The notes under the pieces were generated by a model. That model had not been told where the DNA came from, searched no databases, and worked only from the letters and a program-made list of their open reading frames with translations. Below, piece after piece: positions 5,423 through 43,847 of a stretch of DNA of 52,244 bases. Positions within the stretch are counted from its first letter, which is position 1. Each line of letters begins with the position of its first letter. The DNA is taken from the NCBI GenBank assembly GCA_964429275.1, contig CAYSBJ010000002.1, positions 124,001 to 176,244 of the forward strand. The letters are read 5' to 3'. This DNA comes from an uncultured Pseudomonadota bacterium (GTDB lineage Bacteria > Babelota > Babeliae > Babelales > JAUPTZ01). A program made the translations under genes and the position numbers.

Positions 5423-5437
5423 CGAGGCACGTATCAT

Positions 5438-5641
5438 ATGGAACTCATAGTTATTGCTGGGCTGCTTGCACTCGCGGCCTTTTTCGGGAACATCCGTTTA
5501 GTGGCGCTTTGTGCGCTGATGGCCGTTGGCTTTGGCTGGTATTATGAACAGATGCCAAAAGAACAACGAGAGCAAATTAACGCGATGTACTGTGACATGA
5601 GCAATCGATGTGATCGAGCTTGGAAAGCCTTTTGGTTGTAA
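5438..5641 (+). CDS. Small membrane protein, hypothetical
   Basis: 67 aa with two N-terminal hydrophobic stretches, a GAGG RBS just after the lon stop, and a strong terminator downstream. Confidence 0.65.
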   Translation: MELIVIAGLLALAAFFGNIRLVALCALMAVGFGWYYEQMPKEQREQINAMYCDMSNRCDRAWKAFWL

Positions 5642-5650
5642 TAACTAACA

Positions 5651-5691
5651 AAAAGAAGAGGGGCGGTGTTTTTAACACCGCCCCTCTTCTT
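5651..5691. terminator. Bidirectional intrinsic terminator
   Basis: Perfect 18-bp stem AAGAAGAGGGGCGGTGTT-TTT-AACACCGCCCCTCTTCTT between convergent genes. Confidence 0.85.
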
Positions 5692-5777
5692 ACAGTACGA
5701 AACTATGGCTCGCTCAGGTGTTTTGGCACTGGCTCGTAAAATACGCGTGTAGAAAGTTAATTGATCTGCGCGTAACC

Positions 5778-28566: not shown

Positions 28567-29379
28567 ATGATGATCGATACCCACTGTCACCTCAATATTA
28601 TGGTAGATAAAAAGCCAGAAGAGCTTTTGCGCCAGGAACATTTCCCTGCTATAGAACACATTTTACGAGAAGCTGCTGCGTCTAATCTTTCTTATCTTAT
28701 TACCGTGGGTACCTCTATCCCTGAATCACAGAATTGTGTTGCAGTAGCAGATCGATATCAATCGTCTCCTATTGTTAAAGCTACCATTGGGGTGCATCCG
28801 TGTGATATCACCCAGCCGATTGAAGAGATTATTCGTGAGCTTGAGGCAATTGTTTTTTCTCCGACTGGAAAACATGTGGTAGCGATTGGTGAAATTGGTC
28901 TTGATTATTATCATCAGCCATACGACAAGGAACTTCAGGCGCAAGTGTTTATTGCGCAACTTGAGCTGGCCAAGAAGCATAATTTGCCGGTTGTTATCCA
29001 CATTCGTGATGCCGGAGCAGATGCATTGACGATTTTAGAAAAATATAAAAATGACCTTTGTGGTGTTATTCATTGTTTTTCGCTCGATTTGGCTGCTGCC
29101 GAGAGAGTTATTTCTTGGGGATGGTATATTGGCATTGATGGTCCAATTACCTACCCAAAAAACCATGATTTACGCTCTGTAGTTGCTACAGTGCCATTGA
29201 CTGGCATTGTGATGGAAACTGACGCCCCGTTCTTGCCGCCGCAGCATTTGCGGGGCAAAAGGAATAGTCCGGCTAATCTTGGCATTATTGCACAGGCTAT
29301 TGCTGATGCGCGAGGGATTTCACTTGCAGAAGTTGTTGCGCAGACAGCAAAAAATGCTCGGGCATTGTTTCGGCTTTAG
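28567..29379 (+). CDS. tatD: TatD-family deoxyribonuclease
   Basis: MIDTHCHL, GVHP, AIGEIGLDY, IHIR, HCFS and ETDAPFL. Start at 28567 (ORF track 28492). Confidence 0.95.
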   Translation: MMIDTHCHLNIMVDKKPEELLRQEHFPAIEHILREAAASNLSYLITVGTSIPESQNCVAVADRYQSSPIVKATIGVHPCDITQPIEEIIRELEAIVFSPTGKHVVAIGEIGLDYYHQPYDKELQAQVFIAQLELAKKHNLPVVIHIRDAGADALTILEKYKNDLCGVIHCFSLDLAAAERVISWGWYIGIDGPITYPKNHDLRSVVATVPLTGIVMETDAPFLPPQHLRGKRNSPANLGIIAQAIADARGISLAEVVAQTAKNARALFRL

Positions 29380-31304
29380 AATTCTTCGGTTGTTCTTTTT
29401 ATAAGCTGTTCAGTGTACTCGCTAAGCCCTTCTTTTGATTCTACGCGTTTGAGGTGTTCGTAGGCATACTGAAGAACTCGTTCATCAAAGCCTTCTCGCG
29501 CCAGAAGGTCGAGGGCGATGACAGTAGCATTGATGCCGGGCTTGAGAGTGTATGGATAGGTGAACGACCCATCATTGTTTTTGTAAGCAGCAACGTGATG
29601 ATTTGTGAATTGGCTTGTTTGTTCATCACTAAGCTTGGTTAAATGAAAATAGTGGGTTGCTAGTATGAGCAGACTACTTGGGCACTTACCCAGTTCTTTG
29701 CCGATACCATAGGCTGCTGCAGCGCCAGCTGCTGGATTGGTACAACGAAACATCTCATCCATGACGGTAAGTGCGTATTCGTTTTCTTTTAGATGCATAA
29801 TTTGTGTGATTAGCTCATTGGCACGGCGAACTTCAGCTCGGTGTTGCGAGAGCGCATTACCGGCATCCTCAACGATATTGAGGTAGGTATTTAGGTGGGC
29901 AAACGGTGTTAAGTGTATTGCTTTAGCAGGTACGACGGTAATTGTTTGGGCGAAAAGGGAGGCTAGGACAATCCCCTTGATGATAGTTGATTTACCTCCG
30001 GCATTTGGGCCGGTAATAGTCATGTTGCGGGCCATTTTTCCACCGAGCTCTATGCTGTTGGCAATCGCACGGTTTGGCTGCAAATTAGGGTGCCAGAAGC
30101 CTTCAATGGACAGGTGTGGACCGCTGCCCAATTTCTCATACGTAGCGTAGCAGTAATGGTTTTCCAAGTTTTGATACTCGCGGACCAATGTTGCAATACT
30201 TAAGAGGGCATCAAGTTCGCCAATGGCACTCAAAACGGATGTCAGACGGCTTTGAATTGATAGGAAGCGCGACAGTGAGGCGAGTACTGAGCCCAGTCCA
30301 AGTGAAAAGTAACCCTTATCTTGTTGAAATGCTTTACTCGTAAGGCTGTGAAAAAAGGTGTGTATATCGGTATTTTGTTTGCCACTGAATTTTTGAATGA
30401 CTTTGATAGGTGCAATATTAGCAGAAGAAAAACGACGACCATATGCCCCTACGTTGATGAGTGTTTCTCCGAGCGCAACGAGACTATGCAGTTTTTGTTT
30501 GAGTGACGCGATCAACATGCGGCGGTTGCGCAGCTTGGAATACATTGTTTTCCATGCAATGGCAAGTCCCAATGCGGTAAAGCTTACCGAAACGCCGTTA
30601 AATATTTTTTCTTTTGTGGAAGCACGGCCATCTTGTTCTTTCTCGAAGAAAAACGTTTTTAAAAACTGTGTCCCGGCAAGACCAAAAATAGGAGAAAGAC
30701 TTTCAAAGACATCATAGAATCGACGCCTAAGTTCTAGGCTTATCGGCGAACGGAGCTTGGCGATCTTGCCACTGAAAAGTAGTTGGGCCATATTGTTGCC
30801 GTAAATGATGTCATTTTTATTCCAGAGCGCAAGCAGTTGCGGTTCTTTTTCTGCAAATGGGGTAATGAGGTTTTGCAAGGCAATACGCCCGCCATCGTTT
30901 TCTACCAAGAATTTGATTACTCGTTGACGTTCTTTCAGGAGCGTGATATCCGTGGTTGGTGTGAGTAACATATTGGCGAGGGAGCATTCACCGAGCGTTG
31001 TTTTAGTACGACTAATTCCTTTGAGTACTGTAAAATGTGGCTTGCTTGTATCATAGAAAAGGATGTTGAGGTCATTAATTGTCGTTTTATTAAGAGTGGT
31101 TTTTTGTGCAATATTGCGGTGTTTACTTCCATCTTTGAGGATTGATAGGACTGTTGCATACCGTTCATGCGAGCTCAGAATTTCATCCTCTTCTTTGAGT
31201 GAAGAAAGCCCAGGCATCATGGCATCAGCAATAACATCATAACTTGTTTGTGCAGTAAGAGGATTGAAAAATAGTGCTATTAATAGCACGAAGGAACGGT
31301 TCAT
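29376..31304 (-). CDS. MutS-related ATPase D (signal peptide, lever-like region, hydrophobic hairpin, domain V)
   Basis: Walker A GPNAGGKST, Walker B VMDEMF and ATHY intact; signature degenerate (EDAGNALSQHRAE). No mismatch-binding domain I. Confidence 0.9.
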   Translation of the reverse strand: MNRSFVLLIALFFNPLTAQTSYDVIADAMMPGLSSLKEEDEILSSHERYATVLSILKDGSKHRNIAQKTTLNKTTINDLNILFYDTSKPHFTVLKGISRTKTTLGECSLANMLLTPTTDITLLKERQRVIKFLVENDGGRIALQNLITPFAEKEPQLLALWNKNDIIYGNNMAQLLFSGKIAKLRSPISLELRRRFYDVFESLSPIFGLAGTQFLKTFFFEKEQDGRASTKEKIFNGVSVSFTALGLAIAWKTMYSKLRNRRMLIASLKQKLHSLVALGETLINVGAYGRRFSSANIAPIKVIQKFSGKQNTDIHTFFHSLTSKAFQQDKGYFSLGLGSVLASLSRFLSIQSRLTSVLSAIGELDALLSIATLVREYQNLENHYCYATYEKLGSGPHLSIEGFWHPNLQPNRAIANSIELGGKMARNMTITGPNAGGKSTIIKGIVLASLFAQTITVVPAKAIHLTPFAHLNTYLNIVEDAGNALSQHRAEVRRANELITQIMHLKENEYALTVMDEMFRCTNPAAGAAAAYGIGKELGKCPSSLLILATHYFHLTKLSDEQTSQFTNHHVAAYKNNDGSFTYPYTLKPGINATVIALDLLAREGFDERVLQYAYEHLKRVESKEGLSEYTEQLIKRTTEEF

Positions 31305-31308
31305 ATGA

Positions 31309-33279
31309 TCAGATACCTATGCTTGCAAGTTGTGCTTCCATTTCAGCAATCATTGCGGAAGGAAGTTTTTCTTCTTTGAAGATAGTCGTTGACAGTTGTG
31401 GGCTTTGCACGCCAGGTGTGAGCGTATAGGTTTGTACGGTTTTACCGTCAAAAGCGCTTGGGAGTATGTAGTTTGAAAATTGCAGAGAGTTTTGTCTTCC
31501 TAAAATACTCAGCGATAAAAAATTTGTGGCATGGAGCGCTATGCTGTTTGGTAGTTCGCCCAAGTAGCGGGCGACAGCGTATGCGGCTGCCTGGCCAGCA
31601 CCGGCTTCTGTTCCGGTGAAGGTTGCGTCAGCGATGGTAAAGCTAAAATGTCCGGCAGGCATTTGCTTTATGTGGTTAAATAATTGAAGGGCGCGGTACA
31701 GTTCTGTTTTGAACAGAGAACGATCATTTGCCAAGTCGTCTTTGATGTTGGCATAAATATTGATGCTGCTGTAGGCCGTTGCAGTGTAGCTGCGTGCCAG
31801 ACCAATCCCAATTGATTGAGCACATAAGACGTTGAGTGCAATGCTTTGAAGAACGGTTGACTTGCCACTTTCAAAGATGCCCGTGATAATAGCATTTTGG
31901 GGGTTTTTATCGCCAAGTTTAATCGAATTTAGTACCGGTTTTTCACGAGAGAGCACATGCCAAAAGTTTTGTATGTCAAGAAGAGGTCTGTCTGCGCCTT
32001 CAACAAAAGTGGTGAAGCAAAGTGGTTTCTCTTTGCTATCCCGTGACTTAAGATACCATGATGCAAGGCTACTATATGCATCAAAAGCGCCTACAAGCCC
32101 AATTCCTTTAAGAATGCTTTTGCGACAATTGCGGAGCAGATCGATTATGAGAATTAAGTCGCCACCCAAAACATGAGCCGAGGTTCTGCTGTTGAATGCT
32201 GTACCCATAATAATATCGCGCAATTTTTTTACTTTTGGATGGTCTATAGTGAGAGTAATGTCTATTTCATCACTGAGACATTGCAGTGCTGGATTTTGAT
32301 CAAAGTGTTCTTTGAGCCGTTCTGTTGCGGTAAAAAAGACTTTAAGGGGAAGTAGTGCGTCGTAAAAATAATTCATTGCCTTGAATCGGGCTCGTATCCA
32401 CGCAACAATACCAGGAAGCTGGATACCAGCATTATATGCCAGCAGAACTGCAAGTGTTGCTCCAACCACGCGGTGATCAACATTGAATTTGCTTTCTATT
32501 TCTTCTTTTGATGTGTGAGAATATCCCAAAATCCCTTTTATATTGAGCATGGGAAGTGCGATAATGCCGGCTCCATACCAAATATCGCCAAACATTTTGG
32601 CAACACGATTCCACCCTTGATTGCCTCGTGGGCCAAAACTGCGAAAGAAAAACTCATGCTGATAAATACGTAGTCCTTTGTCGTAAAGAGGATGTTCTTT
32701 GCTCGTTAATCCAAGGAGTTGTTCTTGCACCTGTTTGATGCTGGCACAGATGTTAATGATATCGGTAAGAACAGATGGATTCTCGCATAAAGCTTGGATA
32801 GCTATTTGCCTGCTTTGTATGCGCTGCACGTCAATAATAGGTGTTGTGAGGAGGCGGGCTAAAAATATTTTACCCAAAAGAGTTTGCATTTCTGGGGCAA
32901 TACCGCTCAGAACGCTTGGTTCTTGGTCGATAAGGCGAAGACTTTGCCAAGTGTCCGGCTCAAAAAGGGCCCGTTTTTCAAGCGCATACGAAGGAGTATC
33001 AAGTTGTGACATAAGCTCGAGTGCCATCTCGGTTTGCGTGGGTAAGGATAGAGAGAAGGGGGTTGAAAGACTATCCTTTTGGTCTGTAGTTACATCGGTA
33101 AGCTGTTGGGTGGGTCTTTTTTGCTCACCAAGGCTCTGGCGAAAAGCAATGAGTAAATACTCATATTGCTGTTGGACAGGAGTGAGTTTGCGTGCTTCTT
33201 TAGGCAGGATGAGAGCTTCACCGGAAAGAGTGGTCAGGCAGCAGATGAGCAGAAAAGAAGAGAAATGCCAACGGACCAT
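31309..33279 (-). CDS. MutS-related ATPase C, catalytically degenerate
   Basis: Walker A GIFESGKST, Walker B TIADATF (no catalytic Glu), ATNF (no His); signature DDLANDRSLFKTE largely retained. Confidence 0.88.
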   Translation of the reverse strand: MVRWHFSSFLLICCLTTLSGEALILPKEARKLTPVQQQYEYLLIAFRQSLGEQKRPTQQLTDVTTDQKDSLSTPFSLSLPTQTEMALELMSQLDTPSYALEKRALFEPDTWQSLRLIDQEPSVLSGIAPEMQTLLGKIFLARLLTTPIIDVQRIQSRQIAIQALCENPSVLTDIINICASIKQVQEQLLGLTSKEHPLYDKGLRIYQHEFFFRSFGPRGNQGWNRVAKMFGDIWYGAGIIALPMLNIKGILGYSHTSKEEIESKFNVDHRVVGATLAVLLAYNAGIQLPGIVAWIRARFKAMNYFYDALLPLKVFFTATERLKEHFDQNPALQCLSDEIDITLTIDHPKVKKLRDIIMGTAFNSRTSAHVLGGDLILIIDLLRNCRKSILKGIGLVGAFDAYSSLASWYLKSRDSKEKPLCFTTFVEGADRPLLDIQNFWHVLSREKPVLNSIKLGDKNPQNAIITGIFESGKSTVLQSIALNVLCAQSIGIGLARSYTATAYSSINIYANIKDDLANDRSLFKTELYRALQLFNHIKQMPAGHFSFTIADATFTGTEAGAGQAAAYAVARYLGELPNSIALHATNFLSLSILGRQNSLQFSNYILPSAFDGKTVQTYTLTPGVQSPQLSTTIFKEEKLPSAMIAEMEAQLASIGI

Positions 33280-33316
33280 ACTGCAAAGCCTCTAGGTAAG
33301 TGCTGAAAAACCTTTG

Positions 33317-35332
33317 TTACAAAAGCATTCTATCGCGTTTTAGCCCTTTTTTATAGAGGAATTCTTCGGCTCTGGCAAGAATGTCGGAATCAAAGCCTGC
33401 TTTTCTGGCCAAATCAATAGCAATAACTTGGTACGAGCGCCCTGGCTCGAGTTTAAAAGTATGAATAATATCGCCATTTTCCTCTTTTACGATTGAGACA
33501 TGGTAATTAGTAAAAAAGTGGTTGGTATGGTGCGGCAGGGTGGTGAGTCGGGTAAAGTGGGTGGCGGCGATAGGCATACAGTTTGTGAGTTTCGAGAGTC
33601 CGTAGCAAATGCCAAAGGAGGCGGCTTCACCTTCTGCAGGGGCAGTGCTGCTGAGGAGTTCATCAACGATGATAAAAGAAAATTTGTCTGGGGGAAGATT
33701 ATAAGCACTGTGCACAATTGTACTGATTCGGTCTTCTTCTGCTTGGAAGAGTGAACGGCCTTGAGCGATATTGTCAACCGGGTTCAAGAAGGTAAGGATT
33801 TTGCTCATAGGGGTGAATGTGACATCGCTTGCTGGTGCAATGCCGAGTGTTTGTCCCAGGAGCACGCAGAGGGCAATAGACCGTATATTCATGGATTTGC
33901 CGGAGGCATTGGGGCCAGTAACGACCATGCCAGGATTATTGTCATTTCCTAAAGTTATGCTGTTCAAGACTGCTTTTTCTGACGGGATGAAGGGGTGATA
34001 ATAATTGGTTGCAGCGAGATAGGGGGTGGTACTTTGGCAATAACGAGCAAAGCACCAGGGAGTTGCAGAGTTTGCTTTTTCTTGCATGAGCGTGGCCAGG
34101 CTTAGATACGCCTCTAGTGCACCGATACCCCTGAAGACCTCTGAAAAGCTCGCTTTTATGTTAAGAAACTGCGGGATAGCGTGGAGTACTTTGCCAATGT
34201 AGGACAGGTGGTAGGAATTTGATTGAAATGCTGGATTTGCAAGATTTGTAAGGAATGCTTTTTGTTTTTTGTTTGTTCCTAGTGCAAATTCTTTAATGGC
34301 GGCATGGTTGTAAAGATGCTCGCTGAGTATCGGATCATTCGCGATGAGTGCAAAGATGCGCTGTATGATTGTGCTGCAGGTTATGAGCACTCGAGTGCGC
34401 TGGCGAATTTGCGCGGCGAGATTTGCATATGACTGCATTGAGCGTTTCCATTGGTCAAACTCGATTAACGAAGGAACCATTGAGACAATTGTAGAAAGAA
34501 AAGCATAGAGATTTTCTTCATTTCTTGCTTTTTTCTCTTCTGCGTTCAGAGGGGCATCGTCACTCTTTATTGAGGTTACAGCTTTAAGCCACCCGGGTTG
34601 AGCACTTGCATTTTCCATGCCACGTCCGTATTTCATGTGCATCGTGCGGATTATGGTATTTATGGTATCTAAAATCAGGAAATCGATAACCGGTTTCCAG
34701 TCCTTACGGCGACGGTTAAATTCGAGCCAGAAGGCCCCATTCGCCTCGTTATATTTTTTAAAATTACCTGCGTAGAAAGTCTTCTTTACATAATTGGTGT
34801 ACAAAATATCATCGGTATTCCAGAGGCTGTAGAGGTTTTCTTCAATAGTTGCTAGTTCTTGAAATAATGCCTTCAGTGCCTGCGCAAGCGGCTGGTTGTT
34901 CATGAGGTGCGTGATGATCACTTGATGGGTTTGAAGCACGGTTACGTTACTGGATGGATGGGCCATGAATGTTGCCAATCCTATCTTCCCATTAAGCGAG
35001 GAGCCGCGATACATCTTTTCTAAAAGTGTATAGTCAGGACGTTGATCATTGTAAAAAAAGAGATTGAGATCACGTATTGTTTTGGTATCAATAATTTCTT
35101 CAGCTGCAGTTTCTTGCTTGGCACCAAGCAGCGAAAATAATGCTTCATGCTTTTCATAATCGCTCAATGCTACTGCTGGAAATGTTAGTTTTTTCCCATG
35201 GGTGAGATTTATTTTTTGGTTTAATTTTATTGCAGGAAAGTTTTGAAGAATTTCCTGCCGTATTCTTTCGTATGGGCTGGCATACAGAATGGGCAATGTG
35301 CTCAGAAGAATACTTATTAAAAGTAGCATCAT
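33317..35332 (-). CDS. MutS-related ATPase B' (paralogue of 37389-39515)
   Basis: GPNASGKSM, DNIAQGRSLFQAE, IIVDELLSST, ATHF; signal peptide. Confidence 0.9.
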   Translation of the reverse strand: MMLLLISILLSTLPILYASPYERIRQEILQNFPAIKLNQKINLTHGKKLTFPAVALSDYEKHEALFSLLGAKQETAAEEIIDTKTIRDLNLFFYNDQRPDYTLLEKMYRGSSLNGKIGLATFMAHPSSNVTVLQTHQVIITHLMNNQPLAQALKALFQELATIEENLYSLWNTDDILYTNYVKKTFYAGNFKKYNEANGAFWLEFNRRRKDWKPVIDFLILDTINTIIRTMHMKYGRGMENASAQPGWLKAVTSIKSDDAPLNAEEKKARNEENLYAFLSTIVSMVPSLIEFDQWKRSMQSYANLAAQIRQRTRVLITCSTIIQRIFALIANDPILSEHLYNHAAIKEFALGTNKKQKAFLTNLANPAFQSNSYHLSYIGKVLHAIPQFLNIKASFSEVFRGIGALEAYLSLATLMQEKANSATPWCFARYCQSTTPYLAATNYYHPFIPSEKAVLNSITLGNDNNPGMVVTGPNASGKSMNIRSIALCVLLGQTLGIAPASDVTFTPMSKILTFLNPVDNIAQGRSLFQAEEDRISTIVHSAYNLPPDKFSFIIVDELLSSTAPAEGEAASFGICYGLSKLTNCMPIAATHFTRLTTLPHHTNHFFTNYHVSIVKEENGDIIHTFKLEPGRSYQVIAIDLARKAGFDSDILARAEEFLYKKGLKRDRMLL

Positions 35333-37305
35333 ATGCGATCCTTCTTTGGCAAGTAATGGTGCGGGTTGTTTAGAACGTCGCGCATCTTTTTTGTCATGAC
35401 TGATGGGAGCCCTATTTGTTCTAATAGGTCAGGGGCTATTTGTTGTGTTGTCGCACCAAATTGTATGTGGTAGGGATATACAAAATTGCCGGTGGCATCT
35501 TTTTGTACCACAACCTTCATGTTTTTAAAGCGCGTAGGGTCTTGAGTTTCTAGGTCAACTAGGCCAGAGAAGTGCGTTGATAACAGTGTGATGCTATTTG
35601 GGTAGGTTGCGAGTTTTTCCGCCACAGCAAAGGCGAGGGCCTCTCCTACTCGTGCCTCGGTGCCGGTGCAGATTTCATCTAAGATGGTCAGGCTAAATTG
35701 ATTTTGGGGAAGTTCGTCGATACGCTTGAGTAATGCGAGTGCGCGGGCTAATTCTGCACGAAAGAGCGATTGTTGCTTGCTTGAATCATCGGTAATATTG
35801 AGATAGGTACCGATGCGATGAAAAGGAGTAAAAACAAATCGCCTTGCCGGCGCAATGCCAATTGATTGCCCTAAGAGGCAGCCAAGAGCTAATGCTTTCA
35901 TGATAGTTGATTTGCCACCTGCGTTAACACCACTGATGATGAGATTGTTCGGGTGCTGAGGCGCGGCAAATGACAATGTGTTTAACACGACTTTATCTGC
36001 CGGAATGGCTGGATGATAAAAATCTTGCGCATGAATAATGGGCGTTTGTGCATCTGTGATAAATTCAACAAAGCAGTACGGGGCATTGCTTTGTTGCCGC
36101 TCGCGCATGAGTGTGGCGATGGACAGATAGGCATCGATATACCCAACAAGGACAAGGCCATTGAGCATGGTTGGCAGGACTTTTTTTGCTTCAAGGAGTG
36201 CATTTGCCACAGTACCTTGGTTTGACAAGATGCTTTGCATGATCCCTGGAATGCTGCCATCTTTTGGAGGGGTAAAGGCGCCACTAGAGAGGCGTTTTGC
36301 AAGTGGCTTTAATTGTGGCGCATAATCGATCGCATAACGTTCACTATAGACAGAAAACTCGGAGAATTCGCTCGTTTTTGCGGCTGCAGTGATGATTGGA
36401 AGCTGTAATAAAAGTACGTGTACAGCAGAAAGGCGTCGCTGAATGTAGGCCGTTGTTTCAGCCAAATCTTTGAGGAGGCCAATCGTTTCGTAGGCGCGAT
36501 AACCAGAAAGCGCAGAAATGAGCGCAAAAACCGCTATCAATCCAGCATTCTGGTGCTCTTCGTATGACTTGATTCCTTGTGCAGCTTTTTTTCCCATTAT
36601 GCCTGCGGTATAGCAGAAAAATGGCAACATACAGATTGAGGTTAGGTGCAGCGCATTGAGGGCAGTACTTCTCATGAATGGTGAAGGAATTCGACCAAAG
36701 GTATCATACCAATTCAGGATAATCTCTTGATTAAAAAAATCAGTTGCACGGAGCATAGCAATCAGATTTACTTCTTCTGCAGCAACGCATGTGACAGCGG
36801 CTTGTAGTGTATTGAAAAGGTGGTCATCGGTCGTAAGTCGTTTAATGAATTGCTGGCGCCCTTGTAGGCATGAAAGATCAGTAAGGGGGTCGAGCAGCAG
36901 TCGCGTGAGTGTTAACTCACCGACCATCGTTTTTGTCCGTTTAAGAGAGCCGACGACGGTTTTTTCCGAAATTCTGCTGGCATTTGTGAAAAATTCTAAA
37001 TTCTGCCAGACCTCTTGGTCAATAACGTTGCTTTGTGGTAATGGGTCGGTTGCAGCGATGTAGCTTTTGAGCTTTTCAAGAGACGCGAATACGAGGTCTG
37101 CACGTGTGAGGCTTGGAAGCTCAAGTTTGCGGCTTGTCGTAGTAATGCCTTCATCTGGGTTATTGTGCTCTTCCTCTGGCTTAATGAGCATGCCAACGAA
37201 TGCTGCTTCGATATCTTGGTATCGGTTTTGTATGGTGGGGACGCTACTCCAGCAAGTGCCGGAAAAAAGGGCAATGCCCAAGAAAAGCAGCGGATAAGAA
37301 TACAT
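35329..37305 (-). CDS. MutS-related ATPase A' (paralogue of 39518-41776)
   Basis: GVNAGGKST, DDSSKQQSLFRAE, TILDEICTGT, STHF; signal peptide; ATGA overlap with the next gene. Confidence 0.9.
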   Translation of the reverse strand: MYSYPLLFLGIALFSGTCWSSVPTIQNRYQDIEAAFVGMLIKPEEEHNNPDEGITTTSRKLELPSLTRADLVFASLEKLKSYIAATDPLPQSNVIDQEVWQNLEFFTNASRISEKTVVGSLKRTKTMVGELTLTRLLLDPLTDLSCLQGRQQFIKRLTTDDHLFNTLQAAVTCVAAEEVNLIAMLRATDFFNQEIILNWYDTFGRIPSPFMRSTALNALHLTSICMLPFFCYTAGIMGKKAAQGIKSYEEHQNAGLIAVFALISALSGYRAYETIGLLKDLAETTAYIQRRLSAVHVLLLQLPIITAAAKTSEFSEFSVYSERYAIDYAPQLKPLAKRLSSGAFTPPKDGSIPGIMQSILSNQGTVANALLEAKKVLPTMLNGLVLVGYIDAYLSIATLMRERQQSNAPYCFVEFITDAQTPIIHAQDFYHPAIPADKVVLNTLSFAAPQHPNNLIISGVNAGGKSTIMKALALGCLLGQSIGIAPARRFVFTPFHRIGTYLNITDDSSKQQSLFRAELARALALLKRIDELPQNQFSLTILDEICTGTEARVGEALAFAVAEKLATYPNSITLLSTHFSGLVDLETQDPTRFKNMKVVVQKDATGNFVYPYHIQFGATTQQIAPDLLEQIGLPSVMTKKMRDVLNNPHHYLPKKDRI

Positions 37306-37374
37306 AAGATGCCTGTCCTTGGTACCATGTGGTTACGGACAGGCATCTTAGTTTTTTTAATGAAGCTAAATCAA
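37305..37374 (-). promoter_or_regulatory. 14-bp perfect inverted repeat covering the RBS/start of 35329-37305, overlapped by a candidate internal promoter
   Basis: TAAGATGCCTGTCC (37305-37318) pairs with GGACAGGCATCTTA (37337-37350). Minus strand shows TTGATT-N18-TAAGAT at 37345-37374. Confidence 0.6.
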
Positions 37375-37388
37375 TGGATGATCAGATA

Positions 37389-39515
37389 TTAAATTAGACG
37401 GCCGCGTTCAATACCTTGTTCTTTGAGGAATTGGTCGGCAAAATCTAGAATTTCAGGGTCAAAACCTTGTTGGCGCGCTAAGTCGATGGCGATAACTTGG
37501 TGCGCACGGCCTGGTTCTAACTTGAATGGATGTGTGAAGCTTCCGTCCGTGTTTCTTATCACAGATACGTGATAATTCATGTAAAACCCATTGGTATTTT
37601 GTGGCAGTGTCGTCAATTTTACAAAGTGAGTCGCCATGATTGGCATGCAATTTGGGTATTTTGATAAGCCGTAGCAAATGCCAAGGGTAGCCGCTTCGCC
37701 CTCAGTTGGCGCAGTACTGCTTAATAATTCGTCTGCAACGATGAAGGCAAATTGGTCTTTTGGTAAGGCGACTGTTTCTTGGACGATATACTTAATGCGG
37801 TCTTCTTCTGCTTGAAACAATGAACGGCCTTCAGCGATATTATCTACCGGGTTCAGATAAGTCAGCATCTTGCTCATTGGGGTTAGAAGGGCATTTCGTG
37901 CTGGTGCAATACCAAGCGATTGGCTGAGTAGAAGGCAGAGCGCAATGGAACGAATATTCATCGACTTCCCAGAGGCGTTTGGGCCGGTAACAATCATGCC
38001 TTGATGGCCATTCTCTCCGAGCACAATACTGTTGAGGACGGACTTGTCTGCCGGTATCAGTGGATGAGAATAATCTGCCAAGTTTAGATAGGGGGTGGCC
38101 ATAGTGGCATAACGAGCAAAGCACCATGGTGTTGGTGATGCATTCTTTTCATCGATAAGAGTGCCAATGCTCAAGTAGGCTTCAAGAGCACCCAGCGTTT
38201 TGAACAATGGGCGGAAGTTGTTTCGTATACGTAAGAATTGCGGTACCGCTTGCAAAACTTTACCAACGTTGGCTAAGTAGTAACTATTCGAGGTAAAAGT
38301 ACTGCTTGAGATGGTAGCAAAAAACTTCTTAAGCTTTGCATTTTCTCCGTTTGCAAAAGCGGCAAGATCAGAAAAGCCTTCAAGGTTGTCGCAGAGGAAT
38401 TGCTCTTCTTGAATCGTTTTGTGGATATCAAGAACAATACGTCGCCATTGAACGAAAACAGCAAAGCGAGTGCGTAGATAGGTGACGAATGCCTTATATG
38501 CTTGTACGCTTTTCCACCAGGTTGGTATGTTTGCTGCTATTGGCACCAGTATCGCGAACGCGGAGAGAGTCATGAGTGCATTTATCTGATTAAGTTCTTT
38601 TTTGCCGCGCACGAAGTCGGGGATAGAGGCTATTTGACATAGAAGGTCGTAAGTCACCGGTTTCCATGGACCAACGCCAGCGAAGACTTTTATTTTTTCG
38701 CCATTGGGGAGTGTAATATAATGACCATCCCTAAAACGTTTTTGTGCTTCTGAAAAAGGGATCTCAGCTACTTTATGGACCCCGTAGGGAACCAATATTT
38801 GCGTAATGAGCCCGAGGCCGACTTCTATTTTTGCTAGAGAAATGAGAGGTTTAATGTCATTCATGCGACGGTTAAATTCGAGCCATGCAGCATCACTGCT
38901 GTTACGATAGCGATTTTGATTACCCTTGTAGAATGTTTCCTGCGCAAACTTGCTGTAGATAAGGTCGTTATCGTTCCAAAGGCTATACATTTTCCCTTCA
39001 ATGCCGGCGAGTTCTTTAAAAAGCGTAGCTAGTTTTTTGCCTAATTGCGGACGTGCCATGAGATAGCGCGCAAGATTTTGGCGCCTTTCGAGTTCTTCCT
39101 GATTTGTTGAAGGCATAACTATCCACTTTGCTTGCGCCATTTTTCCGTTCAAAGAAGCGCCGCGATAAGTAGATTCCAGAATGGTATAGTCAGGGCGATC
39201 TATGTTGTAGAAAAAGAGGTTTAAGTCGGTAATAGATTTGGCATCAAGGCATGATGCTACCTCTTCAACATTTTTATCCCCCCCCAGAAATTGGAGGAGA
39301 ATGTTATGCATTTCATATGGAGAGAGTTTATATGCTGGGAATGAGACGCCATTTTTCCCTTTTTTTACTTCCTGAGTTGTGCGAACTGCGGGGAAGTTTT
39401 TGAGTATCTCTGCTCGCAGTAACTCATATGGCTGCGTATTTTGTCCCATAAGCGCCATGCTTAGTCCGCAGAAAAAGAGTGTCTTGGTAATAGTCTTTAA
39501 TGAGAAACGTTTCAT
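37389..39515 (-). CDS. MutS-related ATPase B
   Basis: GPNASGKSM, DNIAEGRSLFQAE, IVADELLSST, ATHF; signal peptide; two central hydrophobic segments. Confidence 0.9.
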   Translation of the reverse strand: MKRFSLKTITKTLFFCGLSMALMGQNTQPYELLRAEILKNFPAVRTTQEVKKGKNGVSFPAYKLSPYEMHNILLQFLGGDKNVEEVASCLDAKSITDLNLFFYNIDRPDYTILESTYRGASLNGKMAQAKWIVMPSTNQEELERRQNLARYLMARPQLGKKLATLFKELAGIEGKMYSLWNDNDLIYSKFAQETFYKGNQNRYRNSSDAAWLEFNRRMNDIKPLISLAKIEVGLGLITQILVPYGVHKVAEIPFSEAQKRFRDGHYITLPNGEKIKVFAGVGPWKPVTYDLLCQIASIPDFVRGKKELNQINALMTLSAFAILVPIAANIPTWWKSVQAYKAFVTYLRTRFAVFVQWRRIVLDIHKTIQEEQFLCDNLEGFSDLAAFANGENAKLKKFFATISSSTFTSNSYYLANVGKVLQAVPQFLRIRNNFRPLFKTLGALEAYLSIGTLIDEKNASPTPWCFARYATMATPYLNLADYSHPLIPADKSVLNSIVLGENGHQGMIVTGPNASGKSMNIRSIALCLLLSQSLGIAPARNALLTPMSKMLTYLNPVDNIAEGRSLFQAEEDRIKYIVQETVALPKDQFAFIVADELLSSTAPTEGEAATLGICYGLSKYPNCMPIMATHFVKLTTLPQNTNGFYMNYHVSVIRNTDGSFTHPFKLEPGRAHQVIAIDLARQQGFDPEILDFADQFLKEQGIERGRLI

Positions 39516-39517
39516 GG

Positions 39518-41776
39518 TTATTCCTTTGTCGGTACGTAGCGGTCAGGGTGATTAAGAACATCACGCATTTTTTGTGTCATAACAAGTGGTAGACCTATTT
39601 TTTCAAGGAGGTCAGGGGCGATTTGTTGTGTTGTCGATCCTTCGTAGAGGCCGTATGGATACACAAATTCACCGTTTTCATCTTTTTCTACGATAACTTT
39701 CATATTTTTATAGAGATCTTTTCTATTCTTCGCCAGCGTTGTAAGACCAGGAAAGTGCGAGGCGAGGAGCAAGAGGCTATTTGAGTACATGCCAAGTTTT
39801 TTGGCAATTGCAACAGCAAGTGCTTCCCCTTCTATGCGTTCGGTACCAGTACAAATTTCATCCAAGATGGTAAAGCTGAATTGATTGCGTGGCAGTGTAT
39901 TTACGGTGCTAAGCAGCTCTTGTGCCCGGGTGATTTCAGCGCGGAAGAGTGATTGTTGCTTGCTCACGTCATCAGTGATATTGAGGTAAGTGTTGATGGT
40001 ATGAAATGGCGTAAATGAGAACGAACGTGCCGGCGCTACACCAAAGACCTGGCCAAAGATGCAGCATAAAGCAATTGCTTTCATGTGTGTTGATTTACCA
40101 CCTGCGTTAACGCCGCTTATCATGATGCTGCTTGGGTTATTATTGGTTCCTATAGCGATCGAATTGGTGACAACCGTTTTTTCATTGACCACTGGGTGAT
40201 GGAAATCTGTTGCATTGATAACAGGGGTCGATTGATTTTCTAAGATTTCTACGAAACAGTATGGCGCGTGCGACTGCTTTCGTTCTCGAAGCAGCTTTGC
40301 TACGGAAAGGTAGGCGTCAAGGTGGCCAATGAGAATCATGCCATCACTTGCTTTTGCAATAACTTTTTTTGCCTCAAGAAGAGCGTTCGCAACGTCCCCC
40401 TTGCCAGAAAAAACAGTTTTAAGTGTTCCTGGCATGCCCCCATCGGCCGGTGGTACAAATTTATTCTTGTCAAGGCGACGAGCTAATTCTTCAAGTTCGA
40501 CTTCTGTAGTGTCAGCGTATCGTTCACTTTGTACCCTTAATTCGCTTACCATTTGTACGGCTGGCAAGCTGTTGATCGCTGCTAATGCACGGAAAAGTGC
40601 GTTAACCGAAGAAAGGCGCCGTTGAATGTACGCTGCGGTCTGCGCGTCGCGGCGTAGTTGCCCAAATACGCTGATGGTAACAAACGTCATGTACGCGCCA
40701 AAAATACCTATAGCGGTTGGTATAAATGCTTTAAGCGTTTTATAATTGCTGCGATTCTTCATCTCATTGATGGCTTGAGTTACCTGAGATTCAATTTGCT
40801 GATCAGTTTCATGAGATCCGCGAAACCGCCGGAGCATTTTCCGACTCCTGCGAGCTGCACTGGCACAAGAGCCATCAAAATCAGTAATGAACTTAATGGC
40901 AGCAACGTCAAGAATTGTTGCGCTGAGTGCGCCTACGGCAAAGGTGAACATAGATAGACCAGCTTGCAAGTTTAGGGCGCCGCTAATGGCTTTTGATGAT
41001 TGTAAGATTCCTACTGTATTGTAGGAATTGAGAATATGGTCTTGTCGCATGCTGTCAGTGGCGAGCATAAGACTAATGAGGCTTTCTTCCTCTTGTGCCA
41101 CTGCTTTGATGATGGCACAGAAATCTTCAAATACATTGTCATCTTCGACAAGTAAGCGAATAAATTTTTGTCGTGCTTTGATGATATCAGCGTTTGTTTC
41201 TGGGTCTAAAAGCATACGAGTATAGATAAGCTCACCGATTGTTGTTTCGGTGCGCTTCGTGGCGCCTACGACGGTTTTGTGCCCGATGCGGCTGCTGTTG
41301 GTGAACAACTCCAGATTTTCCCATACATTACGATTGGTAACGGCAGTGCGTGCAATAGGGTCCGCGTTTGCGTTAAAAAATTTGAGCTTGCCCAGTGAGT
41401 TGAATATGAGGTCCGCCCGATCAAGTTTTGGAAGCGAATAAGGGTTTTTGGCAAAAGCGGCCTTAAAGAATCCCCAGAGTTGCTGGAAGCCATTTTGTAA
41501 TGCAGGAGCCGGCTTTAATTTTTCCAACTCTTTCTTTGTCAGCATGCTGGTGTAGAGTTTTTCGATATCCTGGTAACGATTATCGATTACAATAGCCGGT
41601 TTTTTGCTCGCAGTGGCACTCTTTGGCTTGTTAGCTGTGGTTGGCTTTTTTGGAGTTGCTGTTTTGTTGATGGTTGTTTTTCGCGTTGTTTTCTTTGGTG
41701 CTACCGGCAACAGAAGGCCAGGCATCAAAAGACAAAACGCGCTCAGCAGAGCGCGACGGCAGGTATGATTAAACAT
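39518..41776 (-). CDS. MutS-related ATPase A
   Basis: GVNAGGKST, DDVSKQQSLFRAE, TILDEICTGT, ASHF; signal peptide followed by a K/T/P-rich linker; two central hydrophobic segments. Confidence 0.9.
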   Translation of the reverse strand: MFNHTCRRALLSAFCLLMPGLLLPVAPKKTTRKTTINKTATPKKPTTANKPKSATASKKPAIVIDNRYQDIEKLYTSMLTKKELEKLKPAPALQNGFQQLWGFFKAAFAKNPYSLPKLDRADLIFNSLGKLKFFNANADPIARTAVTNRNVWENLELFTNSSRIGHKTVVGATKRTETTIGELIYTRMLLDPETNADIIKARQKFIRLLVEDDNVFEDFCAIIKAVAQEEESLISLMLATDSMRQDHILNSYNTVGILQSSKAISGALNLQAGLSMFTFAVGALSATILDVAAIKFITDFDGSCASAARRSRKMLRRFRGSHETDQQIESQVTQAINEMKNRSNYKTLKAFIPTAIGIFGAYMTFVTISVFGQLRRDAQTAAYIQRRLSSVNALFRALAAINSLPAVQMVSELRVQSERYADTTEVELEELARRLDKNKFVPPADGGMPGTLKTVFSGKGDVANALLEAKKVIAKASDGMILIGHLDAYLSVAKLLRERKQSHAPYCFVEILENQSTPVINATDFHHPVVNEKTVVTNSIAIGTNNNPSSIMISGVNAGGKSTHMKAIALCCIFGQVFGVAPARSFSFTPFHTINTYLNITDDVSKQQSLFRAEITRAQELLSTVNTLPRNQFSFTILDEICTGTERIEGEALAVAIAKKLGMYSNSLLLLASHFPGLTTLAKNRKDLYKNMKVIVEKDENGEFVYPYGLYEGSTTQQIAPDLLEKIGLPLVMTQKMRDVLNHPDRYVPTKE

Positions 41777-41813
41777 TTAAATTCCCTATAAAATGTAGCT
41801 ATAATCGACTTTT

Positions 41814-41842
41814 AGTGTAGGGGATTTTGCTTCAATTGGCAA
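41814..41842 (-). promoter_or_regulatory. Putative sigma70 promoter of the MutS-like operon
   Basis: TTGCCA-N17-TACACT on the minus strand, 37 nt upstream of the ATG at 41776. Confidence 0.55.
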
Positions 41843-41849
41843 ATCAGGG

Positions 41850-42368
41850 TTACTTGCGGCGAGTTTTGGTGATCGATCGGCGGCGGGCTCCATACCAGGC
41901 TCGCATGAGCATTTCATAGGGGCCGTAGTCAAGGGCAATATGGCTTATGGCCCCCACTACAAAGTAGATATAGAGGTCTAGGGCATATGCGGTGTACTCC
42001 GGACAATAGACGTATACGAGGAGCGGGCCAATGAGGGGACCCCCTAGAATAAACCAAAAGTTATGGGTAATGCCGCGATGGGGCAAAAGAGGGGGAATAA
42101 TGGCCAATGCACTCAGTAAAATGCTAAAAACGATATGCTTGGCCAGGAGGGCGGCTACGAGCAGCGGAATAACCAAGGCATACAACAGCTGTTGCCCTTT
42201 ACTCTTGATATCAATGTCAGGGAAAAGGCCCCCGAGCAGCCCTGCGACAAGGCGCGCAAGGTTTGCAAAGCAGAACCAGGCCCAAAAGGGGGTTTTGGCA
42301 TGAGTAGCGACAATAAGAAGGAGTGCTGTACTGACGGCAGCGCTGCTGTGGGTTTTGTATCCTGGCAT
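41850..42368 (-). CDS. Membrane-bound metal-dependent hydrolase (YdjM-like)
   Basis: MPGYKTH, FPDIDIKS, HRGITH and SHIALD. Start at 42368 (ORF track 42470). Confidence 0.88.
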   Translation of the reverse strand: MPGYKTHSSAAVSTALLLIVATHAKTPFWAWFCFANLARLVAGLLGGLFPDIDIKSKGQQLLYALVIPLLVAALLAKHIVFSILLSALAIIPPLLPHRGITHNFWFILGGPLIGPLLVYVYCPEYTAYALDLYIYFVVGAISHIALDYGPYEMLMRAWYGARRRSITKTRRK

Positions 42369-42390
42369 GGTGGGTGCGGTGTGGACGAGG

Positions 42391-42918
42391 CTAGAACAGC
42401 GATGTTTGCTTAGGCGGCAGGGGGTCTTTGGTCGCACGAGACTGTGGCCAAAAGCTGCGAGGTATGGCACCGCGCCAGAGCTTTTCGAACTCTTCTGATG
42501 GCTTTATTTTTTGATCAAGGCCAGCATTTGCAAGGGCGTCTGCTTCAGTATTGTACTCACGGCGAACGTGGGTAATAACACAAGGAACAAATGCTTTGAG
42601 TTTATTAGCTAGCTGATTCCAGTGAATGAGCAACGGGTCTTTGACTCTATACTCTCGGTTCATTTGCTTAACCACGAGCAATGAGTCGGCATGGATATGG
42701 ACCGGGCCTTTCCAGCCTTTTTGTAAAATGATCTGCAGCGCGAGGACCAGCGCGGCGTACTCAGCGACATTATTGGTGTAGCGGTAGAATGAGTACCCGA
42801 CGGCAAAGAATGGTTCTTCTTTGTTATTGATGTAGGCAAAGGCGCCCAGGCCAGCAGGACCGGGGTTTCCACGGCTTGCGCCATCAATAAAAACGTTCAA
42901 GGTCTGTTGTGTGGTCAT
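42391..42918 (-). CDS. rnhA: Ribonuclease HI
   Basis: FIDGASRGNPGPAG, TNNVAEY, DSLLVVKQM and HVRREYNTEADALAN. Confidence 0.93.
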   Translation of the reverse strand: MTTQQTLNVFIDGASRGNPGPAGLGAFAYINNKEEPFFAVGYSFYRYTNNVAEYAALVLALQIILQKGWKGPVHIHADSLLVVKQMNREYRVKDPLLIHWNQLANKLKAFVPCVITHVRREYNTEADALANAGLDQKIKPSEEFEKLWRGAIPRSFWPQSRATKDPLPPKQTSLF

Positions 42919-42920
42919 GA

Positions 42921-43652
42921 TTATTTTCCGGAAAGGGTGGCGGTGGTGGCGTCAGGAACATAGAGAAAGCGGTAACAACTGCGGCAGCGGATGACGGCCC
43001 GAGTACTCAGGCCCATTATTTCTTGCCCGAGAAGATTGGTAAAGCAGGCACTACACGTGTTATCAGCAATGGGAACGGCTGGGTTTGCCACTCGTTCTTT
43101 CATTTGTAAGTATTCTTTGCGCAATTCTGCAGGAACTTGGGGGAGGAGCGTATTCCATTCTTGTTCAAGTGCCGCGATATTTGCTTGGCATTCTTGGCAT
43201 TTTATCTCGCTGCAGCGGCGGAGGCTTTCGATTGCTTCGCCAGAGAGAGAGACCTCACTTTTGAGCTTTTCAAGTGTGGCTTTTACCAGCTCTTGTTGTT
43301 CAAGAGCGGTCATGGCCGCCGTTTCAACAGCGTCTATTTCTGCAGTTATTTTTTCTATTTCATGCTCGGTGGCGATTCGTTCCTTAGCGTTGACCATGCT
43401 TGCCAACTGATTTTCTTTGCGTTGGAGCTGAGTGCGTAGGTCTCGTACGGAGAGTTCACCTTGATCGATTTTTTTTTGAAAATCACGGATGGTGTGTTCG
43501 GCTTCTGTCAGTGTAGCAACTTTTTTTTGATGCGCTGTGTTGGCGCTGATCAAGAGGTCTTGTTCTTTTTTTGCGGCTTTACGCAGTTGATTGATCTCGT
43601 GATCAATGACAACCATTTTTTTTAATTCATTCCAAACAAAGGCGGTTGTCAT
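42921..43652 (-). CDS. Coiled-coil protein with a C4 zinc ribbon (DUF164/CT398-like)
   Basis: Long coiled coil followed by CSAC...CRSCYRFLY. Confidence 0.88.
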   Translation of the reverse strand: MTTAFVWNELKKMVVIDHEINQLRKAAKKEQDLLISANTAHQKKVATLTEAEHTIRDFQKKIDQGELSVRDLRTQLQRKENQLASMVNAKERIATEHEIEKITAEIDAVETAAMTALEQQELVKATLEKLKSEVSLSGEAIESLRRCSEIKCQECQANIAALEQEWNTLLPQVPAELRKEYLQMKERVANPAVPIADNTCSACFTNLLGQEIMGLSTRAVIRCRSCYRFLYVPDATTATLSGK

Positions 43653-43770: not shown

Positions 43771-43847
43771 TGGTGGGCCCACCAGGGCTCGAACCTGGGA
43801 CCTTTCGGTTATGAGCCGACTGCTCTGACCGACTGAGCTATAGGCCC
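43771..43847 (-). tRNA. tRNA with CAU anticodon, most likely tRNA-Ile2 (lysidine-modified)
   Basis: GGGCCTATAGCTCAGTCGGTCAGAGCAGTCGG-CTCATAA-CCGAAAGGTCCCAGGTTCGAGCCCTGGTGGGCCCACCA. The acceptor stem is tRNA-Ile-like and CCA is encoded. Confidence 0.93.

Follow-up and report, generated by a model that had tools for sequence, protein, structure and literature searches.

Six consecutive genes in a 52,244-nucleotide stretch of DNA from an uncultured intracellular bacterium of the GTDB phylum Babelota (assembly GCA_964429275.1, contig CAYSBJ010000002.1, positions 124,001 to 176,244; hereafter the window) encode MutS-like proteins that probably work in pairs at a membrane and not in DNA repair. MutS proteins are textbook sensors of DNA mismatches. 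The proteins of this array, which occupies window positions 29376-41776 on the minus strand, retain the MutS core and ATPase, and carry a signal-like N-terminus and a pair of nearly charge-free segments that may form a hydrophobic hairpin where MutS would hold DNA. The reading that we favour, with a probability of about one half, is that they are exported heterodimeric ATP switches, held at a membrane by the hairpin and facing ATP derived from a eukaryotic host.

Domain composition and probable pairing of the array proteins

The array consists of tandem open reading frames (ORFs) of two types, designated alpha and beta, all read from the minus strand. Gene A (39518-41776; 752 amino acids, aa) encodes an alpha-type MutS-like ATPase, as judged from its ORF, its Pfam matches, its AlphaFold2 (AF2) model and its place in the alpha clade of the tree described below. 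It is followed by the beta-type gene B (37389-39515; 708 aa), which starts 2 nucleotides (nt) past the stop codon of A, by the alpha-type gene A' (35329-37305; 658 aa), whose product is 50% identical to A, and by the beta-type gene B' (33317-35332; 671 aa), which shares 4 nt with the end of A'. The array closes with gene C (31309-33279; 656 aa), alpha-type with degenerate catalytic motifs, and the beta-type gene D (29376-31304; 642 aa), which starts 4 nt past the stop codon of C.

All six proteins belong to the MutS superfamily and are domain III and V proteins that lack domains I, II and IV. MutS_V (PF00488) was matched in every one of them (E 3e-12 to 2e-32; 47-113 bits against a cut-off of 30.2), at 4.7e-27 in A and most weakly in C (3.3e-12). 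Matches to MutS_III (PF05192) were weak and covered the N-terminal part of the domain in five of the six proteins, passing the cut-off of 34.1 in A (34.3; 3.8e-08) and A' (34.9), falling below it in D, C and B', and being absent in B. In none of the six did Pfam find MutS_I (PF01624), the connector domain II or the clamp MutS_IV (PF05190); Smr (PF01713) or another nuclease domain, and ABC_tran or permease families, were likewise without a match in any of them. The NCBIfam equivalog models for MutS scored far below their cut-offs (NF003810, 51-130 bits against 480; TIGR01070, 46-103 bits against 641.7), as did the MutS2 model TIGR01069 (72-86 bits for five proteins against 400, with no match for C).

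Structure prediction places the same proteins on the MutS fold. The AF2 model of A, built with an alignment of 145 family members (the six of the array and 139 representatives of 550-800 aa), reached a mean predicted local distance difference test score (pLDDT) of 88 and a predicted template modelling score (pTM) of 0.83; the model of B reached a pLDDT of 90. Foldseek returned a MutS fold at E about 1e-17. VIA-align superposed the model on MutS and MSH chains with Z from 32.7 to 30 over 434-476 residues, the best being 8omo_B (Z 32.7, root-mean-square deviation 4.4, 441 aligned), followed by Escherichia coli MutS 7oto_B (Z 31.8, 4.4, 434 aligned, model residues 142-747 on chain residues 264-799); MutS2 structures gave Z of 25-28. 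ABC transporters appeared only as weak fold matches (E above 5e-05, TM-score at most 0.25). At the level of profiles, HMMER aligned the family with solved MutS at residues 261-347 and 529-794, leaving the hairpin zone unaligned; as the match extends to MutS residue 794, the C-terminal dimerisation helices are covered. Comparison by hhalign with the MutS encoded elsewhere in the same genome was collinear (107-682 against 235-774), the middle being without confidence. In a screen against the PADLOC anti-phage defence models, for which A, B, C and D were submitted (four of the six proteins), no family was assigned.

The architecture may be set against that of the MutS1/MSH dimers (E. coli MutS; MSH2-MSH6 and MSH2-MSH3), with which the array proteins share the core, the lever and the ATPase fold and would share the dimeric, ABC-type composite ATP sites. 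The six proteins differ from them in lacking the mismatch-binding, connector and clamp domains and in possessing a putative export signal and a hydrophobic hairpin. MSH heterodimers are asymmetric in their ATP sites, and an asymmetry of this general kind may exist in the present array.

A FastTree phylogeny of 80 sequences, with the canonical MutS of the genome as root, gathers the six array proteins in one clade (99) that divides into A, A' and C (99) and a sister group of B, B' and D (100), so that the gene order is alpha-beta three times over. The spacing within pairs is 2, -4 and 4 nt, and that between pairs 83 and 37 nt. The same pattern is found in two further genomes of the genus, G043 with six genes and G177 with four; across these and the window genome (G000), with starts taken at the most upstream start codon, spacing is at most 16 nt in 8 of 8 pairs and at least 37 nt between pairs in 5 of 5 cases. 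In 10 arrays of other genera most members could not be typed as alpha or beta, and the pairing is seen in one genus. The arrangement is that of three putative translationally coupled alpha-beta pairs, A-B, A'-B' and C-D. Paired MutS-like ATPase genes have been noted before, in that MutS4A and MutS4B are described by Lin, Nei and Ma (2007; PMC2190696) as two diverged genes, adjacent and overlapping, which suggests a heterodimer; however, MutS4 comprises the ATPase domain only and is a separate subfamily.

The motifs of the third pair provide a further indication of heterodimer formation. In C, the near-invariant Asn of the family's Walker A motif (31858..31881) is replaced by Phe with GKS retained, the catalytic Glu of Walker B (31624..31638) is replaced by Ala, and the switch His (31519..31527) by Asn; the S-L-F signature-like motif is retained. 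In D, Walker A, Walker B and the His are intact, and the signature-like motif (29832..29849) reads S-Q-H in place of the family's S-L-F. Motif loss of the C type occurs in 6-7 of the 145 members and signature change of the D type in 7, never in the same protein, and genes of the two kinds stand next to each other in G043 and G177. In ABC-type ATPases, MutS included, each ATP site combines Walker motifs from one subunit with the signature region of its partner, and composite sites of this sort were reportedly described by Junop and colleagues in 2001. On this basis, the complementary decay of C and D would leave a C-D dimer with one dead and one intact site, and as far as sequence can tell the pattern is that of a heterodimer with one dead ATP site. 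Heterodimeric ABC exporters such as TM287/288 and TAP1/TAP2 are alike in that Walker B Glu and switch His are lost in one subunit and the signature is altered in the other, and are unlike C-D in that the nucleotide-binding domain of the latter is of MutS type and its membrane part would be a two-helix hairpin per subunit.

Complex prediction for A (255-752) with B (210-708) gave a score of 0.47 (runs of 0.46, 0.47 and 0.49), and the best of three controls 0.00. The mark that A-B passes is reached by 116 of 157 solved complexes and by 2 of 215 mismatched pairs, although scores of 0.60 or less are found, among those that pass, in only 18 of the 157 solved complexes and in both of the passing mismatches. 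The runs agreed in at least 83% of contacts, with a partner pLDDT of at least 68. The prediction thereby lends weak support to the pairing of A with B, and the pass may reflect likeness to solved MutS dimers.

The hydrophobic hairpin and the signal-like N-termini

Between the two halves of the lever-like region, charge-free runs of at least 12 aa (referred to as arms) occur as a pair in five of the six paralogues. In A, arm 1 (aa 263-289; 40910..40990) lies inside the AF2 helix 265-301 and arm 2 (aa 350-374; 40655..40729) at the start of the helix 344-402; in B, arm 1 (aa 232-247; 38775..38822) forms the far end of the helix 208-249 and arm 2 (aa 308-334; 38514..38594) the start of the helix 306-369. 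On the Kyte-Doolittle scale with a 19-residue window (KD19), for which 1.6 or more is the classical threshold for a transmembrane segment, these four arms reach 1.86, 1.69, 1.79 and 1.82, respectively. The arms of A' (aa 213-238, 36592..36669; aa 251-269, 36499..36555) remain under 1.6; arm 1 of C spans aa 233-247 (32539..32583) and its arm 2 aa 271-295 (32395..32469; KD19 1.52). In D, a weakly hydrophobic arm 1 (aa 202-215; 30660..30701) is followed by arm 2 at aa 234-251 (30552..30605). The hydrophobic stretches quoted in a preliminary description of this DNA are all present in the translations, and the intervening loops have the lengths that it gave (A, 55 aa; A', 15 aa). Its further statement that each paralogue carries two hydrophobic segments is accurate for five of them but fails for B', in which the sole charge-free run (aa 274-290; 34463..34513) corresponds to arm 2 and no charge-free arm 1 was found.

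The position of the arms is consistent with the idea, put forward in the same description, that hydrophobic tips project between the two lever halves, as the AF2 models of both A and B place them at the far ends of two long helices. Between the arms, the model of A contains two short helices, and that of B a loop (250-305) at a pLDDT of 46-63 with a small beta hairpin. The accompanying proposal that the hairpin takes the place of MutS domain IV stands in its topological sense, given the collinear hhalign comparison and the span of the VIA-align superposition, and occupation of the lever/clamp insertion by the hairpin is supported to that extent. Equivalence to domain IV residue by residue could not be established: hhalign gives the middle region no confidence, HMMER leaves it unaligned, and the fold comparisons report no more than the outermost aligned residues at either end. 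A search of the ESM Atlas with the hairpin part only (A 255-405) was uninformative, the best score being 0.83 to unnamed clusters.

Across the 145-member alignment, three zones are hydrophobic and nearly devoid of charge (charged fraction 0.03-0.05), namely the N-terminus and both arms. Column entropy peaks in the arms, at 3.4-3.5 bits compared with 0.85-2.3 in the ATPase, and the arms enclose an insertion-rich loop. Charge-free runs of at least 14 aa number two or more in the hairpin zone of 119 members, one in 22 and none in 4, and their density is 1.91 per 100 aa in this zone against 0.76 elsewhere. The median arm lengths are 23 and 19 aa, with 55% ILVFMA and 10.6% Gly, and the arm ends carry more K/R than D/E and are enriched in W/Y. 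The arms themselves are marginally hydrophobic. Hydrophobicity alone would not make a case for a membrane; the arms are also depleted of charge, variable in sequence, suitable in length and end composition and placed at the tips of the helices, and these features taken together make insertion of the hairpin into a membrane plausible.

Comparison with the nearest orthologues, which are 66-88% identical in protein and in which synonymous sites are therefore likely saturated, gives an indication of how this zone evolves. A and its orthologue P0002 are 70-79% identical in the flanks and 42%, 41% and 42% in arm 1, loop and arm 2, without gaps in the loop; for B and its orthologue P0060 the flanks are at 88-92%, arm 1 at 52%, the loop at 62% with 4 gaps, and arm 2 at 75%. 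Between paralogues, loop identity is 23% for A and A' (24 gaps) and 26% for B and B' (28 gaps), whereas between orthologues loop length is stable. The earlier view that the loop is the part least alike and that the flanks align well is thus only partly upheld, in that the flanks are conserved and the loop is variable, with arms that are no less variable. Its suggestion that a variable loop may set specificity is likewise tempered by the variability of the arms and by the constancy of loop length among orthologues. By these comparisons, the hairpin zone as a whole is the fastest-evolving part of the protein.

The N-termini of all six proteins comprise one or two basic residues, 12-17 hydrophobic residues and an end of small residues, with charge-free runs at aa 9-27 in A (41696..41752) and aa 12-30 in B (39426..39482). 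In A, a K/T/P-rich low-complexity linker (residues 29-60; 41600-41692) directly follows the run and is absent in A'; residues 21-55 of A have an AF2 pLDDT below 50. An N-terminal charge-free run, with a median of 19 aa, is present in 142 of the 145 members, preceded by a mean of 2.06 K/R and followed by 15 aa that are net acidic (1.94 K/R, 2.39 D/E). Small residues at -3 and -1 near the end of the run were found in 130 of these 142, although this pattern is common in any case. Taken by their sequence, the N-termini look like cleaved Sec signals, which would export the MutS body. Lipoproteins were also considered and rejected, as a lipobox-like pattern is confined to 9 of the 145 members, the array proteins not among them. 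A hydrophobic N-terminal 12-mer is present in 90% of the 145 bacterial-type members and in 0 of 116 viral-type members. As the bacterial members bear a signal, and the viral members, made in the host cytoplasm, do not, a working place outside the bacterial cytoplasm is suggested. A parallel may exist in Babela, another member of the Dependentiae, for which signal-bearing proteins, ATPase fusions included, are inferred to be secreted into the host by way of type II secretion, the sole secretion system found (PMC4378268).

Relatives in symbionts and giant viruses, and the genomic setting

The family is widespread among the Dependentiae, the label ('Candidatus Dependentiae bacterium') under which close homologues are filed in the source databases. 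A profile of the six proteins, applied to 201 Dependentiae genomes with up to 5 candidates scored per genome, gave a match at E of 1e-20 or lower in 200, and in 176 of the 201 the best match was at 1e-47 or lower; the other 24 matching genomes (1e-21 to 1e-36) are provisionally taken to have been matched through canonical MutS. Tandem copies are common in these genomes. Some tandem arrays in other genera end in weak or shorter members (128-221 bits; L083:5772-6917, L089:4681-6768 and L091:7039-8343), in which Walker A was not found and which are possibly decayed copies or N-terminal-only relatives. Among 1.84 billion representative sequences, 3,143 proteins matched at E of 1e-30 or lower, canonical MutS included, the best 150 all at 8e-121 or lower. 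Matches in the ESM Atlas fell into Bacteroidota and Nucleocytoviricota clusters, and 407 of 598 matched stretches in IMG/VR encode relatives. Some members derive from metagenome-assembled genomes (MAGs) labelled only 'uncultured Pseudomonadota' or 'uncultured bacterium'.

Viral membership was followed through 16 ORFs on viral contigs with a G+C content of 19-40%. Eleven of these scored 457-510 bits over the whole family profile and five 188-402 bits; with the same profile a seventh paralogue of the window genome, described below, scored 430 bits and the canonical MutS 170 bits in two pieces. The viral ORFs have two strongly hydrophobic segments at the place of the hairpin, charge-free over up to 38 aa, and their arms are somewhat more hydrophobic than bacterial ones. 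A basic-then-hydrophobic, signal-like start was found in 0 of the 16, charge-free runs being present at 8-27 in L013 and at 1-14 in L001 and L002. The first viral arm is conserved, with three invariant prolines 7 residues apart (P176, P183 and P190 of L006), whereas bacterial arms are variable. On the 376-kb giant-virus contig L016, the MutS-like gene has a major capsid protein gene immediately upstream in the same orientation (3491-4906 and 5026-6999), and another viral member has a P11 minor capsid gene and a TBP gene in its vicinity; such capsid-gene neighbours indicate that the contigs are real giant viruses. In a FastTree phylogeny with a long outgroup and skewed composition, the viral sequences are united in a single clade (100) within the signal-bearing members, a placement that is tentative.

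When species genomes were scanned using the viral alignment, full-length members were recovered from Babeliales, two Cardinium, one Amoebophilaceae, a Cytophagales MAG and some Pseudomonadota-labelled MAGs. Fourteen loci were examined, of which 12 were full-length (557-735 bits), 11 of these 12 having an N-terminal charge-free run. The two Cardinium, the Amoebophilaceae and the Cytophagales MAG members (L102, L104, L107 and L108) are full-length at 557-588 bits and have signal-like N-termini, so that the family crosses phyla among symbionts of eukaryotes. Structural comparison of the B model with BFVD returned a Yasminevirus protein (template TM-score 0.72) and 'MutS subfamily 8 [Tetraselmis virus 1]' (0.69), and the MutS7 of the latter virus at 0.36. 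Ogata and colleagues are said to have defined MutS8 (ISME J 5:1143, 2011) from giant algal viruses, relatives being known from 'Candidatus Amoebophilus asiaticus'. By this definition the six genes are most likely of MutS8 type, given their viral kin and structural match, and agree with it further in having domains III and V in the absence of domain I, in the score of the viral proteins (457-510 bits) and in the membership of Cardinium and Amoebophilaceae. The two sets differ in that the signal is confined to the bacterial members, in that the proteins have here been multiplied into alpha/beta pairs with one ATP site decayed, and in that viral arms are more hydrophobic and conserved with invariant prolines. 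A membrane hairpin or a signal peptide in a MutS homologue was described by no paper found in the literature searched, to which the MutS8-defining paper did not belong; the word 'membrane' does not occur in Lin, Nei and Ma (2007; PMC2190696).

The genome itself comprises 1,207,998 bases in 8 contigs and contains 8 matches to MutS_V, accounted for by the canonical MutS, the six array proteins and the seventh paralogue. The canonical MutS possesses domains I, III, IV and V, with MutS_I at 6-116 and MutS_IV at 397-487. The seventh family member (L094:1694-3853, minus strand, on contig G000:C2 outside the window) is a solitary 719-aa protein whose N-terminus is signal-like and which is charge-free over residues 250-266 and 320-343; in the tree it forms a long branch beside the outgroup. 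The neighbours of the array are housekeeping genes (TatD, an aminoacyl-tRNA synthetase, TrkAH, RNase H, HflX and DnaE), the TatD DNase gene adjoining D in convergent orientation. Upstream of A on the same strand (41850-43652, minus) are genes for a YdjM-family inner-membrane protein, RNase H and a CT398-like coiled-coil protein, followed by a tRNA-Met at 43771-43847; no connection of these genes or of the tRNA to the array was found. Scans of 29000-42600 gave no excess of promoters (23 against 19.5 +/- 3.8 in shuffled sequence) or of terminators (12 against 15.3 +/- 3.9). The genome also encodes three secretins and ATPases of the type II secretion system or pilus kind. A TLC-type ATP/ADP translocase gene is present in the window (1298-2752, minus strand) and about four more are clustered on contig C1 (G000:C1:344200-354495), giving some five genes of a family found in 0 of 14 control genomes; by these translocases the organism is marked as an energy parasite. 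At the start of the window (30-1283, plus strand) lies a gene for an ankyrin-repeat protein (Ank_2, 8e-13); ankyrin-repeat proteins are typical host-interaction proteins of amoeba-associated bacteria.

A model for the array proteins and its alternatives

The data may be assembled into a model in which the array encodes three heterodimers (A-B, A'-B' and C-D) of MutS-derived, ABC-type ATPases of the MutS8 type. Each subunit would have kept the domain III core and the ATPase and dimerisation domain V, and would have lost the mismatch-binding, connector and clamp domains. A Sec-type signal peptide, presumably cleaved, would direct the proteins out of the bacterial cytoplasm, and the hairpin at the lever tips, where MutS holds DNA, would sit in a membrane with the variable loop on its far side. 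Host-derived ATP would be available in the compartment towards which the ATPase heads are turned, and this compartment could be either the host side of a host-derived membrane, reached by secretion, or the periplasm of a parasite that imports ATP; we lean slightly to the former. By analogy with MutS, binding of ATP at the composite sites could close the heads, move the levers and shift the two hairpins against each other within the membrane, and the C-D dimer would operate with one working and one dead site. The proposal of the earlier description that ATP opens and closes a four-helix membrane bundle is conjectural in the same way. The role is not mismatch repair.

Several points weigh against this model. 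An ATPase outside the bacterial cytoplasm is unusual, and the route across the outer membrane is itself only inferred. A hydrophobic hairpin would, moreover, tend to halt Sec transfer. With regard to the membrane segments, a KD19 of 1.6 or more on both arms is attained in A and B only, A', C and D being under this value on both arms and B' being without a first arm; in the family, two such segments occur in 16 of the 145 members, one in 57 and none in 72. On an approximate Hessa-type scale summed over 19 residues, the arms score 3.0 and 2.0 in A, 3.8 and 4.2 in A', 4.9 and 4.1 in B, 5.7 and 5.5 in C, 5.5 in D and 6.6 in B'. Transmembrane helices of TLC and TrkH proteins from this genome range from -3.9 to +5.9, and the arm scores overlap those of the buried strand after Walker A (3.7-5.8) and of buried parts of soluble MutS (5.0-6.6). 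Charge-free runs, of 23 and 26 aa, are likewise present in domain III of the genome's soluble canonical MutS. K/R density is 0.160 in the loop and 0.159 and 0.177 in the flanks, with a background of 0.106; because it is equal on either side of the hairpin, the positive-inside rule yields no topology and was set aside as a guide. The original suggestion of membrane insertion is plausible for arms that are charge-free, Gly-rich, 19-23 aa long, flanked by K/R and W/Y and variable in sequence, but in four of the six paralogues the arms are no more hydrophobic than buried parts of soluble MutS.

It is possible, although unlikely, that the proteins are exported and soluble, the arms being buried in the dimer (for example, as a four-helix bundle that closes a ring at the clamp site) or beneath the loop, and the whole acting as an ATP-gated clamp on a ligand other than DNA. 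In hydrophobicity, buried segments of soluble MutS equal or exceed the arms of C, D and B' and arm 1 of B, 72 of the 145 members have no KD19 window of 1.6 or more in the zone, canonical MutS has comparable charge-free runs, and low hydrophobicity would permit passage through Sec. However, helices buried in a conserved fold tend to be conserved themselves, whereas the arms combine the highest entropy with freedom from charge; they lie at the far tips of long helices beside a loop of low confidence; their median lengths of 23 and 19 aa and aromatic and basic ends fit a bilayer; and the viral charge-free runs, at up to 38 aa, are much longer. An alternate scenario, somewhat less likely again, is an inner-membrane machine, in which the N-terminus is an uncleaved N-out anchor, the MutS body remains cytoplasmic, and the hairpin spans the inner membrane and presents its variable loop to the periplasm, transmitting force outwards in the manner of MacB or FtsEX. 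This would leave the ATPase where ATP normally is, the three hydrophobic segments would give a consistent topology of N-out, body-in and loop-out, and the variability of the loops is of a kind common on exposed surfaces. Set against it are the 2.06 K/R before the N-terminal run and the acidic residues after it, which favour N-in and export, the short hydrophobic regions ending in small residues in the manner of cleaved signals, and the viral members, which are without the N-terminal segment and yet have kept the hairpin. Nor are the six proteins members of the MacB-FtsEX-type mechanotransmitters, as none matched an ABC_tran-type domain or a multi-helix permease family.

The least probable of these alternatives retains the proteins as nucleic-acid enzymes, with the hairpin as a tether only, and supposes a role in the control of recombination, in DNA uptake at the envelope or in ribosome rescue resembling that of MutS2. 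Membership of the MutS superfamily and the convergent TatD DNase gene beside D would agree with such a role, as would the assumption, found in the literature (PMC3749498), that giant-virus MutS8 serves genome maintenance. A precedent is offered by MutS2, which bears the clamp and can act on ribosomes according to a 2024 review (PMC11275761) that also counts several MutS subfamilies as still uncharacterised. MutS2 of B. subtilis and Thermus resembles the array proteins in lacking domains I and II and in placing the MutS scaffold in a role other than mismatch repair; it differs in keeping the clamp and the KOW and Smr domains, none of which is present in the six. Both of the MutS domains that contact DNA (I and IV) are missing here, as is any Smr or nuclease domain; a true MutS (domains I, III, IV and V) has its own gene elsewhere in this genome, the export signal would remove the proteins from the chromosome, and the neighbours are unrelated housekeeping genes, all of which argues against this possibility.

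The model of exported, membrane-held heterodimers can be extended, although the extension is doubtful, to an ATP-driven membrane device common to agents that multiply in eukaryotic cells, namely Dependentiae, Amoebophilaceae and Cardinium, and giant viruses. The hairpin would in that case lie in a host-derived membrane, such as that of a parasite vacuole or virus factory, with the heads in the host cytosol, and lever movements would remodel, tether or gate the membrane. Bacteria would export the protein by means of its signal peptide, viruses would make it directly in the host cytoplasm, and the alpha/beta pairs, one with a dead site, would be specialised versions. A functional likeness, purely speculative, may be drawn with the chlamydial Inc proteins, which have two moderately hydrophobic helices and a loop, occur in multiple copies in an intracellular bacterium and have their flanks on one side of the membrane. 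Inc proteins differ, however, in being secreted by type III secretion, in possessing neither a Sec signal nor an ATPase, and in being unrelated in sequence.

To our knowledge, the only well-studied departure of MutS from DNA is that of MutS2 on ribosomes. Here a whole branch of MutS has lost every DNA-contacting part and appears to have gained an export signal and a membrane-like hairpin, and it is represented by seven copies in a genome of 1.2 Mb. Should the favoured model be correct, it would constitute a new coupling between ABC-type ATPases and membranes, in which the ATPase may use host ATP outside the bacterial cytoplasm, and a device shared with giant viruses would be a use of the MutS motor that has never been described. 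The C-D pair may serve as a natural experiment on ATP-site asymmetry. In addition, the annotation 'DNA mismatch repair protein MutS' would change for hundreds of gene clusters, as would the assumption that the MutS8 of giant viruses serves the fidelity of their genomes.

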